Shown here piece by piece: positions 52,901 to 58,900 of a stretch of 64,000 bases of DNA. The DNA is taken from NCBI RefSeq assembly GCF_000026545.1, contig NC_011601.1; one strand, 5' to 3'. Position numbers: made by a program. How positions within the stretch are numbered: the stretch's first letter is position 1; every line of letters begins with the position of its first letter. The stretch is from Escherichia coli O127:H6 str. E2348/69. Lineage in GTDB: Bacteria > Pseudomonadota > Gammaproteobacteria > Enterobacterales > Enterobacteriaceae.

Positions 52901-55900
52901 CGCGCAAACTGGCAAAACGTCTCGGCGTTTCACATACCGCGATTGCCAATAAGTTGCGGGAATATGGTCTGAGTCAGAAGAAGAACGAAGAGTAAGCGTG
53001 AATATGCCTGATGGTGCAACACCATCAGGCATATTAACTTATGCTTTCAGTACAGCCAGAGCTGCTTCGTAATCCGGCTCGGTGGTGATTTCATCCACCA
53101 GCTGGCTGAAAATCACATTGTCATTTTCATCAATAACCACAACGGCACGCGCTGCCAGACCTTTCAGTGGGCCATCAGCAATTGCCACACCGTAGGCTTG
53201 CAGGAATTCAGCGTTACGGAAAGTGGAGAGGGTGATAACGTTGTTCAGACCTTCTGCGCCGCAGAAACGAGACTGGGCGAACGGCAGATCGGCAGAGATA
53301 CACAGCACAACGGTGTTGTCGATCTCGGTTGCCAGTTGGTTAAACTTACGCACTGATGCGGCGCAAACACCGGTATCAATACTCGGGAAAATGTTCAGCA
53401 CTTTGCGTTTACCCGCAAACTGACCGAGGGTGACGTCAGACAGATCTTTTGCCACGAGAGTAAAAGTCTGCGCTTTGCTACCCGCCTGCGGGATGGAATT
53501 GGCGACTGTAACCGGGTTGCCCTGGAAATGAACGGTTTGTGACATGATTATCTTTCCTGTTTACATATAGTTAACGTCACACCTAGTTTATGCTAACTGT
53601 CAATAACACAGCAAACGCTATTTGCGCTTAATCCGCAGACCACCGCGACAACAAGGAGTAAAGATGAGAACCGTTAAGGTATTTGAGGAGGCCTGGCCCT
53701 TACATACCCCGTTTGTGATTGCTCGGGGAAGTCGCAGTGAAGCGCGCGTGGTGGTGGTTGAACTGGAAGAAGAGGGTATTAAAGGCACCGGCGAATGCAC
53801 GCCGTATCCGCGTTATGGGGAAAGTGATGCCTCGGTAATGGCGCAAATTATGAGCGTCGTGCCGCAATTAGAGAAAGGGTTGACACGGGAGGAGTTGCAA
53901 AAAATCCTCCCTGCCGGCGCAGCACGTAATGCGCTGGATTGTGCATTGTGGGATCTGGCGGCGCGAAAACAGCAGCAATCGCTGGCTGATTTGATCGGCA
54001 TAACGCTTCCCGAGACAGTCACCACGGCACAGACGATAGTCATCGGTACGCCTGATCAGATGGCCAATAGTGCATCAACACTCTGGCAGGCAGGCGCGAA
54101 ATTACTGAAAGTGAAGCTGGATAACCATCTTATCAGTGAGCGGATGGTGGCAATTCGCACAGCTGTGCCCGATGCGACGCTGATCGTTGATGCAAATGAA
54201 TCCTGGCGTGCAGAAGGGTTGGCGGCGCGTTGCCAGCTATTGGCAGATTTAGGCGTTGCGATGCTTGAACAACCGCTTTCTGCGCAGGACGATGCGGCGC
54301 TGGAGAATTTTATTCATCCGTTACCGATTTGTGCTGATGAAAGTTGTCATACTCGTAGCAATCTGAAGGCGCTGAAAGGGCGCTATGAGATGGTTAACAT
54401 TAAGCTTGATAAAACCGGTGGTCTGACGGAAGCGCTGGCGCTGGCGACTGAAGCGCGTGCACAAGGTTTTCGTCTGATGCTGGGCTGCATGTTGTGTACC
54501 TCTCGTGCCATTAGCGCCGCTTTACCGCTGGTGCCGCAGGTCAGTTTCGCCGATCTTGACGGACCGACCTGGCTGGCGGTAGATGTGGAACCGGCGCTTC
54601 AGTTCACGACGGGCGAATTGCATCTTTAGGATGCCAGCGCAGCAAGTTTGCCATCGCAAAGAGATATTTTTCGCTGGCTTCGTCGGAGGAGATGGGTGGA
54701 AACTCTGCGGTGATGCAATGCAAGTTGAGATCTGCACACCAACTGCCGAAAGAGCCAGGCGTTTCATAACCGACGCTGGTTACCAGGGGCAATTCAAACG
54801 CCTGGGCCAGCCATTCACCTAATTCGCTGTGTCTGGGATCTTCAATACAGGCCAGCGGATCGTGGAATGAGACCACCCAGGCAGGTTGAATGCGGTGTAT
54901 AAGTTGGCACAGCGCCTGGGTTTCAGGTTCGGAGCCAGGTTTGTCACCTGTCAGTAATACAACATCACGTTCTTCAGCGGCGCTGTTCCAGCGATAAACT
55001 GTTTCACCTTCCTTCCAGTTTGCTGCCGGAAAGTTTCGGTTTAAATCCACACCATTAGCATTGGCCCGTAACCCTAACTGGCAGCCGTCAGGATTCACAC
55101 ACAGCACCACATGATGGCGGCGCAAAGAAGGTGTCAAAGTCCGCAGAGCACAGGAGAGCGTGACGATCGAAGAGTTTTCATCACCGTGAGTGCCAGCCAG
55201 AATCAAACCACTTTCGTGACTGGCTGCAGGGGCCGGAAACCAGATTAACGGCGCGCCCAATAATGAACGTCCGTAATGTTCTGTTCCGGGCGGAAATGCG
55301 CCGCGTTCGGCGCGTGGGCGAGTTACGGTCATGATCGTCTCTGGTTCAGGAAGTATTACAGGCAGTGTTGTGCAAATTTTGCGGATTATCAAATCCTTTT
55401 CTTCAACGCTATGTCATCGATCTTGTATCACTTTTTTGCCGGAAGTTGTTTGTATTTTCATTGATGTGCAGATATTAGAATTGTCGTAATGTTATATACA
55501 TGGCGTATTTTATTCTTACTGGTTCTACACATGTTAATCGCATCTGATTGATCAGTTCACCTTAATAAGTTTAATAAATCGTACTGCACATAGTACAGTA
55601 CGATGGTAGCTATATAATTGATTTACATGAAGAAGGGCTTATCACTATCAGTCCCGGGTTGATTGATGCCTATATTCTCACCAATGTGTTTCTCAGGTTT
55701 ATCGATGATATCTGTGATTAATGCTGCGACACTCTTACGTGATACGATCGTACCTTTGAATGGTTCATTGCGTGAGGTAAGCTCATAATCAATAATATCT
55801 TCATCAGTCAGCCAGGCAGGGCGAAGAATTGTATATTCCAGTCCAGAAGCCTCAATTGCATCCGCAGCCCTGCGGAATGGTTTTAGGGGTTCACCAATAA

Positions 55901-58900
55901 CTGCATTATTCCATTCGCCAAATTTTCCTGGAACTTCATCATAAATACCGAGTGAAAGAACAAAGATCAGACGTTTAATATCACAGGCTTTCATCGCAGC
56001 GATCACTGAATTTGCCTGAATATCTAAATCTTCCCCCGTAAGGTTGGCATACACAACATCCTGTCCCTGCATGGCCTGCTTAAGTGCTGCATGATTCAGT
56101 ACATCCCCCATAATAATCTTGCTATTAGTTGGATAGGGTTTGTGGATTTTTGCTGGCTGACGGGCAAATAAAGTTTGTTTAATGGTTTGTTTATCTGCCA
56201 GTTGATTAATCACATGGCGGGCTATCTGACCGCCAGCACCAAGAATCAGTACATTTTTCATGAAACTTTTCCCAGATTATTGGCAGCAATATGCCTGGCC
56301 ATATCACTATTACGGATTTGAATATGTTTCATTACAGAGTTTCCTCAAAGAACGGAGCTAATACTGAAATTGCTTCAGCCACATAGACTTTGCCGTCATA
56401 AAGATCCATATGGTTTGCGCCTTCAACAATGTGATAGCGTTTATCCTGGCTTGATGCTCGATCGTACAGGTCGTCACTCATCCATTTGCTCCCAGCCTGG
56501 CTGCCCGCCACAATCTGTATCGGCTGAGTCAGGTACACTTCCGCCATATGGTAAGCATCATAGGTAATAATCTGGTTAAGGCTGCGCAAAGTAGCGTAAC
56601 CCGGTGCTGTTGGATACTGCGCGCGAGGGGTGTGGTAATACTCCCAGGCCTGACGCAGTTCTTCGTTCGGCGCATCGGACTCCTTCATTGGTGCCAGTGG
56701 CATAGTGGCGTATTCTCCGCTGCTAATATCGCTGGTTCGGGCGTTTGAACCCGCGTCAACGTATGGTAGGGCATCAATAGATTTCACATTGTTTTCCCAA
56801 CCATTACGGAACATCGAACCAATATTGACCGCACTAACAGTACCGATGGCCTTGATGCGGCGATCCTGAATTGCAGCATTGGCTGTATATCCTGCACCGG
56901 CACAAATTCCCATCGCACCAATTCGGGTATTGTCGACATAAGAAAGCGTTGTCAGGTAATCAATCACGGCACTGACGTCTTCAGTACGAATGTATGGGTT
57001 TTCTAACTGACGCGGCTCGCCGCCGCTTTCACCTTGATAAGATGCGTCATAAGCAATAGTGACAAATCCCTTTTCCGCCAGTTTTTCGGCATAGGTTCCG
57101 GCCGTTTGCTCTTTAACGCCCCCACCTGGGTGAGATACCACAATTGCCGGATACTGACGGGTTTCATCAAATTTTGGAGGGAAATAGATCACTGCAGACA
57201 AAGAGATGGTTGGATTATTGCTGTTAGTGAAGCTGACTTTATTATTCATCATTCCGTTCCTCATGGAGTTGTCGGTTCGTTTTAACGGTTGGTGATATCA
57301 CTATAGATATTGATCATTAAGTTGATTAGACCCAAAATCATGATTAGACCTATCATTTAAATGATTAATAGATTGTATGGAGATACTGAATGAAGCGTGA
57401 AGAAATCGCTGATCTGATGGCGTTTGTCGTTGTTGCAGAGGAGCGTAGCTTCACTCGCGCAGCAGCCCGCCTGAGCATGGCGCAGTCAGCTTTAAGCCAG
57501 ATAGTGCGCCGTATAGAAGAACGATTGGGATTGCGGCTTCTGACGCGAACCACGCGCAGCGTTGTACCCACTGAAGCGGGCGAGCATCTTTTGTCTGTTC
57601 TTGGCCCTATGTTGCATGACATAGATTCTGCCCTGACATCCCTGAGCGATCTGCAGAACCGCCCATCCGGGACAATACGTATTACTACTGTAGAACATGC
57701 AGCAAAAACGATATTGTTACCAGCTATGCGCACATTCCTGAAATCGCATCCTGAAATTGATATTCAGCTTACCATTGATTATGGTTTGACCGATGTCGTT
57801 TCTGAACGTTTTGATGCAGGCGTCCGTCTGGGTGGGGAGATGGATAAAGATATGATCGCCATTCGAATCGGGCCAGACATACCAATGGCTATTGTTGGCT
57901 CACCGGATTATTTTTCTCGCCGAAGTGCTCCAACGTCAGTGTCACAATTAATAGATCATCAGGCAATTAATTTGTATCTTCCCACATCGGGTACAGCAAA
58001 TCGCTGGAGATTAATACGCGGTGGACGTGAAGTTCGTGTTCGCATGGAAGGTCAGCTTTTACTGAATACGATAGACCTGATCATTGATGCTGCAATTGAT
58101 GGGCATGGATTGGCGTATCTACCTTATGATCAGGTTGAGCGGGCTATTAAAGAAAAAAAACTGATACGTGTTTTGGATAAATTCACACCAGATTTACCCG
58201 GTTATCACCTGTACTATCCACACCGTCGACATGCTGGCTCGGCATTCTCATTATTTATAGATAGGCTGAAGTATAAAGGTGCTGTTTAGCACTACTTGCT
58301 GATACATTAATTTAATTCTTCTCTTAACGTATTCTCAGTTCCTTTCAACGTTTTGGTTATTTTTTATTCTTCGCACAATGGCGACAGATGCTGATTATGA
58401 TACCGAAAACGGGTTTGAATGTGCGAAGCCCGAACGTAGTGTTCGGAGTTCTATGTGCTTTACCGCATTTTGGAGACTATTATTTACACTAAATCTGATT
58501 TGATATATTGATACTTAAAACATTTGATGCTTCCTTTGTCACTTTTTTGATGGAAGTTGTTTGCATTTCTTTAAAGCGAAACAAATAATTACGCATCAAT
58601 TTTAATGTCGGTTAGAGGGAAACTTATGAAGCACTCTGTTTCAGTCACGTGTTGTGCGCTGTTGGTCAGCAGCATTTCTCTTTCGTATGCTGCTGAAGTT
58701 CCGAGCGGCACAGTACTGGCAGAGAAGCAGGAGCTGGTGCGCCACATTAAAGATGAGCCAGCGTCGCTGGATCCCGCTAAAGCCGTGGGCCTGCCGGAGA
58801 TTCAGGTCATTCGCGATCTGTTTGAAGGACTGGTGAATCAGAACGAGAAAGGGGAGATTGTCCCCGGCGTTGCGACTCAGTGGAAAAGTAATGACAACCG

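Follow-up and report, generated by a model that had tools for sequence, protein, structure and literature searches.

The window analysed here, a stretch of 64,000 nucleotides from Escherichia coli O127:H6 str. E2348/69 (contig NC_011601.1 of assembly GCF_000026545.1), contains the genes for the murein tripeptide amidase MpaA and the murein tripeptide binding protein MppA in the order ycjG, mpaA (-), SDR/ymjC (-), ycjY (-), pgrR (+) and mppA (+), and a conserved motif of 30 bp is present in the intergenic DNA upstream of both mpaA and mppA. In an earlier note the two motifs were interpreted as a shared cis-regulatory site, possibly for the LysR-type regulator PgrR or for another regulator. The data presented here suggest instead that the two motifs very probably represent a duplicated segment of one ancestral mpaA-mppA spacer, and that they now mark the borders of an inserted cassette comprising ymjC, ycjY and pgrR (Table 1).

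Both 30-mers are found on the plus strand where the earlier note had placed them, and they agree at 26 of the first 29 positions and at 26/30 over their full length. Ungapped extension lengthens the match to 37 nt (55421-55457 versus 58532-58568; 84% identity) with a spacing of 3111 bp. The copies form a same-strand (plus) direct repeat of 37-38 nt that encloses ymjC, ycjY and pgrR, an arrangement that had gone unmentioned. The distance of 55-100 bp to the genes had been given correctly, with copy 1 starting 96 nt upstream of the mpaA ATG and copy 2 ending 56 nt upstream of the mppA ATG (58626), and so had the opposite orientation relative to the downstream gene, both copies reading on the plus strand while mpaA is encoded on the minus and mppA on the plus strand. 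This difference in orientation arises because a single ancestral site lay between two divergent genes.

The repeat pair is specific to this locus. An exhaustive scan of the window at all offsets identified no other direct 29-mer pair with at least 26 matches, the degenerate 29-mer pattern matches these two sites only (0 expected from 100 shuffles), and in Markov-simulated windows (n = 12) the best pair matched at 22-24 of 29 positions and never at more. In 5418 complete E. coli genomes the 38-mer is present in 10654 places with a median of two per genome and is, therefore, locus-specific. Both copies lie in AT-rich intergenic DNA, as would be expected if their similarity had come about by chance or if they belonged to a dispersed intergenic repeat or structured-RNA family. 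However, a pair that is unique in the window and reaches a level never attained in simulations speaks against chance; two places per genome across the 5418 genomes speak against a REP-, BIME- or ERIC-like element; and with no relevant match in Rfam and with folds no better than those of shuffles for both strands of both copies (z from -1.3 to +1.8), an RNA family is not indicated. This interpretation is already refuted by the comparative data, and we consider its probability negligible.

The evidence for a duplication comes from genomes in which mpaA and mppA are contiguous. In E. coli CUVET20-PYO4 and MFDS1019527 the two genes are 182 bp apart and are separated by a spacer with a single copy, CACTTTTTTGCCGGAAGTTGTTTGCATTTC, which is a hybrid in the sense that its left part reads as copy 1 and its right part as copy 2. 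This contiguous, or empty, allele is present in 173 of the 5418 complete E. coli genomes; most E. coli carry the module in the spacer. Scanning one genome per species with MpaA, followed by mapping with tblastn, yielded 80 loci, and at 71 of these the two genes are divergent neighbours with a spacer of 138-316 bp, mostly 182-190 bp. These loci are from Citrobacter, Enterobacter, Kluyvera, Leclercia, Lelliottia, Raoultella, Kosakonia, Pluralibacter and Yokenella as well as from E. albertii, E. whittamii and other Escherichia lineages. In these spacers no more than one copy of the motif could be recognised, invariably at approximately position 95-126, and the cassette was found at only one surveyed locus, that of Escherichia sp. 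E1V33. In a BLAST comparison of the empty spacer with this cassette-bearing locus, the left match covers positions 2-125 and the right match positions 92-182, giving an overlap of 34 bp; inspection of the edges lengthens the duplicated segment from 34 to approximately 38 bp.

Table 1. Features of the mpaA-mppA locus. Positions refer to the window, except for those of the ancestral single-copy spacer; information content was calculated from the alignment of 72 single-copy spacers.
Feature	Window position	Strand	Ancestral spacer position	Information content (bits)	Remarks
mpaA	54604..55332	-			murein tripeptide amidase
Putative mpaA promoter	55364..55392	-			TTGATA-17-AACACT, wholly left of copy 1
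Conserved block CAGTGTTGTGCAAA	55363-55376		31-44	1.84	
Conserved block TTATCAAATCCTTT	55386-55399		54-67	1.59	
Repeat copy 1	55421..55458	+	89-126		mpaA-proximal
Inserted cassette	55459..58531				3.07 kb, missing from the single-copy (empty) allele
Terminator-like hairpin	55578..55604	-			12-bp stem and U-rich tail, between the cassette genes and mpaA
ymjC	55623..56261	-			intact; SDR-family oxidoreductase; cassette gene
ycjY	56332..57264	-			alpha/beta hydrolase; cassette gene; coordinates of the open reading frame
Putative PgrR operator	57313..57365	+			ycjY-pgrR spacer; two perfect ATCA-N6-TGAT dyads and two TGATTAGAC direct-repeat boxes
pgrR (ycjZ)	57390..58289	+			LysR-type regulator; cassette gene
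Repeat copy 2	58532..58569	+			mppA-proximal; right half identical to the ancestral spacer
Conserved block TTTGCATTTC			117-126	1.69	right end of the motif
Conserved block GAAACAAATAATTACG			135-150	1.67	
Putative mppA promoter	58561..58589	+			-35 TTGCAT 58561-58566, 17 bp, -10 AATAAT 58584-58589
mppA	58626..60239	+			murein tripeptide binding protein

The reverse scenario, in which the two-copy arrangement with the cassette is ancestral and single-copy spacers arose by deletion between the repeats, would also account for the hybrid, as recombination between the repeats would generate exactly the observed single copy; moreover, the repeats seem to exchange sequence, given that the GAT of copy 2 occurs in copy 1 in ~80 genomes. 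However, this scenario requires the same precise deletion in essentially every other sampled genus, at 71 loci; the module is portable and found on plasmids in unrelated contexts; and the present sampling already shows insertion within Escherichia with single-copy outgroups. We regard an ancestral cassette as very unlikely: the single-copy spacer is the ancestral state. For the E. coli empty alleles taken alone, the flanks leave the direction undecided. These alleles comprise several divergent haplotypes, the nearest cassette-bearing flanks being 98.9% identical over 8 kb, and they are compatible with either original absence or repeat-mediated loss of the cassette. Recent excision received no support, as no cassette-bearing genome was seen with flanks near-identical to those of an empty-site genome.

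Combining these observations, we suggest a model in which (i) a single spacer of ~182 bp with one copy of the motif separated the divergent mpaA and mppA genes, (ii) a horizontally acquired module coding for an SDR protein, one or more alpha/beta hydrolases and PgrR would have entered this spacer in the E. coli lineage, (iii) a segment of ~38 bp corresponding to spacer positions 89-126 would have been duplicated at the insertion point, and (iv) the duplication would have left each gene with its full upstream region. The duplication could have been generated by single-crossover integration of a circular DNA via a short homologous stretch. Alternatively, it could have been generated by repair of a staggered break, and direct repeats formed by either route would be able to recombine later. 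The differences between the copies are concentrated in the cassette-proximal halves and the outer halves have the ancestral sequence; in particular, the left half of copy 2 differs from the ancestral spacer at 3-5 positions (TCCTTTGTCAC, GAT). This distribution fits recombination between similar, non-identical sequences, either Campbell-type or att-like, and it fits equally well a fill-in duplication after which the inner halves were under relaxed constraint.

Like the direct repeats that flank genomic islands, the two copies are same-strand copies of host sequence around foreign DNA, with a hybrid copy at the empty site, and are recombinable. This raises the possibility that they are the attL and attR of a decayed tyrosine-integrase island that had its attB in the mppA promoter region and of which three cargo genes are left. 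A direct repeat of ~38 bp is within the size range of att cores, and differences in the island-proximal halves are expected from imperfect homology between attP and attB. The right end of the cassette consists of decayed non-coding DNA with a queH fragment annotated by the Prokaryotic Genome Annotation Pipeline (PGAP), and the 665-bp deletion of K-12-type alleles begins exactly at the inner edge of copy 1. The region is also a recurrent target, a tyrosine-integrase prophage interrupting mppA in MFDS1019527 and a cdtB islet occupying the same spacer in Salmonella arizonae and diarizonae. On the other hand, flanking direct repeats were found but neither an integrase gene nor a copy of attP: all cassette forms examined are free of an integrase or an integrase remnant, a motif scan of 2.9 million viral contigs returned two coincidental matches within unrelated coding sequences, and the modules on Klebsiella plasmids have no flanking motif. 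In total, we consider an att-flanked island unlikely, though a possibility to be kept in mind. Unlike islands mobilized by integrases or transposons, the mpaA-mppA insert revealed no transposase, inverted terminal repeats, integrase or attP. A target-site duplication by a transposon or insertion sequence was rejected given the repeat length of 34-38 bp, the lack of inverted repeats at the ends of the insert and the lack of a transposase among its three genes; target duplications by transposons are 2-14 bp long, and the 38-bp mpaA-mppA duplication is far longer.

The cassette itself is a foreign and portable module. A four-gene form coding for an SDR protein, two alpha/beta hydrolases and a LysR-type regulator is present on Klebsiella conjugative plasmids, with 79% nucleotide identity and in two different neighbourhoods, and the module is also found on plasmids of Rhizobium and Agrobacterium with ~69% identity. 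Both the motif and the non-coding ends of the E. coli insert are missing from the Klebsiella plasmid modules, and for this reason the plasmid copies could not be identified as the immediate donor. Within E. coli, O157 and O121 retain the four-gene form; the window and K-12 carry a single hydrolase gene. The two hydrolase genes are in tandem in O157:H7 (positions 1983-3833 of locus L084) and in O121 (positions 1999-3851 of locus L085), and the single hydrolase gene of the window and K-12 probably resulted from a deletion of ~0.9 kb between the paralogues. In O157 the non-coding right end of the cassette includes the PGAP-annotated fragment of 25 codons of the epoxyqueuosine reductase QueH (L084 4968-5042, corresponding to approximately 58387-58461 of the window); the window version of this fragment has no NCBIfam match. 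The queH fragment may be a relic of the donor neighbourhood.

Escherichia sp. E1V33 provides evidence for the mobility of the cassette within the genus. Its mpaA is ~13% divergent from that of E. coli, yet its cassette proteins are 98-99% identical (positions 5430-7913 of locus L005), and its copy 2 switches part-way from cassette-like to native sequence, placing the right recombination junction inside the repeat. In combination, the divergent mpaA, the near-identical cassette and the junction within the repeat indicate that the cassette moves between Escherichia lineages by homologous recombination. The E1V33 cassette carries the K-12-type deletion. In the K-12-type allele, this deletion of 665 bp corresponds to 55459-56123 of the window. 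It extends from precisely the inner edge of copy 1 into ymjC, with loss of the hairpin behind ymjC and of the 3' part of the gene, which is why K-12 has ymjC/ymjD pseudogene fragments. The hairpin, located directly downstream of intact ymjC (z = -3.0 relative to shuffles), resembles a terminator that would separate the cassette genes from mpaA in E2348/69, and the behaviour of ycjY-ymjDC-mpaA as a single operon in K-12 may be due to the 665-bp deletion. Given that the K-12-type allele is without the hairpin between ymjC and mpaA, results obtained in K-12 may not apply to strains such as E2348/69.

Which part of the ancestral spacer is maintained over time was assessed from the alignment of the 72 single-copy spacers. 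Four conserved blocks stand out (Table 1), of which TTTGCATTTC forms the right end of the motif; the stretch between TTTGCATTTC and GAAACAAATAATTACG is variable (0.39 bits). The sequence TTGC[AT][AT]-N17-AATAAT is present in 72/72 spacers at a distance of 31-59 nt from the mppA ATG, and a consensus scan of the window flags the same site. In copy 2 the hexamers have sigma-70 spacing as well as the strand and position expected for mppA, and they are conserved while the centre and the leader vary. TTGCAT-17-AATAAT is, therefore, likely the sigma-70 promoter of mppA, with the motif supplying the -35 hexamer, which lies inside copy 2 and matches the consensus at only 3-4 of six positions. This conservation gives the motif a polarity, contrary to the earlier proposal that the site is not a promoter of fixed polarity, as the best-conserved part of the motif is precisely the putative mppA -35. 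An inverted repeat spanning the mppA promoter, TTGTTT-N16-AAACAA, was dropped as a candidate element, its left arm not being conserved across genera.

For mpaA, TTGAT(T/A)-17-AACACT is found at 69 of 75 loci, 30-40 nt (mostly 31-32 nt) before the ATG. This putative promoter is situated entirely between mpaA and copy 1, which is therefore an orphan: copy 1 is located ~30 bp upstream of the mpaA -35, and its own -35-like hexamer, TTGCAT in most E. coli and TTGTAT in E2348/69 by a C-to-T change, faces into the cassette and is followed by TATTAG rather than AATAAT, that is, by no conserved -10. On the mpaA strand the blocks TTATCAAATCCTTT and CAGTGTTGTGCAAA together correspond to TTGATA-17-AACACT, and their conservation reaches beyond the hexamers. 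The TTATCAAATCCTTT block also fits most of the IHF core WATCAANNNNTT, and a factor possibly binds at the TTATCAAATCCTTT and CAGTGTTGTGCAAA blocks near mpaA. As in other regions in which promoters of linked genes are arranged back to back, the ancestral spacer of ~182 bp carries a conserved -35/-10 pair for each of the two genes, with the motif situated between and over these pairs; unlike in an intact divergent promoter region, the spacer in the window is split by 3.1 kb and the central 38 bp are found on both sides. In this way, core promoters of mppA and mpaA are predicted for the whole family and are well supported by comparison.

Several observations weigh against reading the motif simply as a duplicated piece of promoter DNA. 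With regard to the duplication of 38 bp, neither a mobility gene nor inverted repeats at the termini were found for the insert, nor did any phage provide an attP counterpart. With regard to the promoter, its assignment for mppA is based on sequence comparisons: neither searchable papers nor supplements of differential RNA sequencing studies yielded data on transcription starts of mppA or mpaA, and the mppA promoter is unmentioned in the lists obtained with RpoD holoenzyme by systematic evolution of ligands by exponential enrichment (SELEX). With regard to the motif itself, its left 20 nt are averagely conserved (1.05 bits versus a spacer mean of 1.01 bits) and include near-fixed TCA, TTT and AAG elements at approximately -40 to -60 of the putative mppA promoter, and the ancestral single copy may harbour a site for a regulator. 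The T-rich left part at these positions could correspond to an UP-like element or to the site of an activator. Like an UP element or a class I activator site, the T-run and TCA..TTT..AAG are located around -40 to -60, ahead of a weak -35; unlike such elements, this part of the motif is only averagely conserved, and the likeness is one of sequence.

In an alternative scenario both copies would be working operators through which PgrR co-regulates mpaA and mppA, and their similarity would be held by selection for binding. The two genes are functionally linked, PgrR has been reported to lower mpaA expression (PMC9928106; PMC5934670), copy 2 reads GTCACTTTTTTGAT and matches the ATCA-N6-TGAT dyad of the ycjY-pgrR operator at 7/8 positions, and the copy-1 allele ATCACTTTTTTGAT of ~80 genomes matches this dyad at 8/8. 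However, ATCA-N6-TGAT with at most one mismatch occurs 73 times in the window, which is the background level. Moreover, ~70 species have a single motif without a pgrR cassette at the locus (within +/-8 kb), the TGATTAGAC boxes are missing from the motif, the published list of SELEX sites does not include the region upstream of mpaA or mppA (PMC5934670), and the effect on mpaA has been attributed to the ycjY-ymjDC-mpaA operon and read-through from the ycjY promoter. As a LysR operator, the motif showed neither similarity to the operator nor co-occurrence with pgrR across genomes. By comparison, conservation between E. coli and the Klebsiella plasmid modules extends to the dyads and TGATTAGAC boxes of the putative operator between ycjY and pgrR. 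This operator agrees with the PgrR SELEX peak in the ycjY/ycjZ spacer (PMC5934670; PMC3946193). The motif is at the same locus as this operator and copy 2 weakly resembles its dyad; the boxes travel with the module, whereas the motif lacks them and is older than pgrR at this locus.

Because the motif predates pgrR here, is without operator boxes and is outside the SELEX lists, binding of PgrR to the motif, as suggested in the earlier note, is unlikely, with the E. coli-specific GAT variant as a possible exception, and we judge a pair of PgrR operators maintained by selection to be highly improbable. A simpler explanation for the reported repression of mpaA by PgrR is read-through from the ycjY promoter, which is controlled by PgrR and came to lie upstream of mpaA, on its strand, through the insertion. 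Control of mpaA by PgrR thus probably arose recently as a by-product of the insertion and of read-through, and it may be allele-dependent.

The GAT variant also bears on the relationship between the two copies. GAT is otherwise typical of copy 2, and its occurrence in place of GCC in copy 1 of ~80 E. coli genomes, including O145:H28 (positions 1122-1159 of locus L086), suggests that these ATCACTTTTTTGAT alleles arose by gene conversion between the repeats. A more elaborate model would combine the duplication with regulation at both genes. In this model, TCA..TTT..AAG would be the site of an activator or architectural protein shared by the ancestral divergent promoters, and the duplication would keep mpaA and mppA co-regulated through this site; the E. 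coli-specific change from GCC to GAT in copy 2, carried over to copy 1 by conversion in the ~80 genomes, would have created the ATCA-N6-TGAT dyad and brought mppA under PgrR; and the repeats would allow reversible loss of the module. Taken as a whole, we consider this combination improbable.

Returning to the duplicated spacer segment, the motif was confirmed as a feature of regulatory DNA, and the orthologous upstream region retains it across the Enterobacteriaceae; the lack of conservation in other species that the earlier note had named as counter-evidence was not observed. Of the shared cis-regulatory site, the conserved promoter DNA stands, whereas the two copies stem from a duplication of the spacer and are not independently kept sites. 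The feature is an ordinary insertion scar, that is, a junction duplication around an inserted module; it does not represent a new site for a regulator. The resemblance between the DNA upstream of mpaA and that upstream of mppA is the footprint of how the locus was assembled, and a structural reading replaces the regulatory one. It also follows that pgrR, the named regulator of peptidoglycan recycling, travels in a portable SDR-hydrolase-LysR module found on plasmids of Klebsiella and Rhizobium, and that its position between mpaA and mppA is confined to E. coli, apart from the cassette of Escherichia sp. E1V33.

The mpaA-mppA spacer has received other DNA as well. In Salmonella enterica subsp. 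arizonae (positions 4848-8000 of locus L024) and diarizonae (locus L025) it contains a different insert of 3.1-3.4 kb that encodes cytolethal distending toxin B (NCBIfam NF011787, 379 bits) and two flanking lipoprotein-like open reading frames, which identifies the spacer as a recurrent insertion site. Of the motif, diarizonae keeps the left half up to ...CTGCCGGA, where homology breaks. In the empty-site E. coli strain MFDS1019527 (positions 4916-6361 of locus L002), the tyrosine-integrase prophage is located ~66 nt into the mppA coding sequence.

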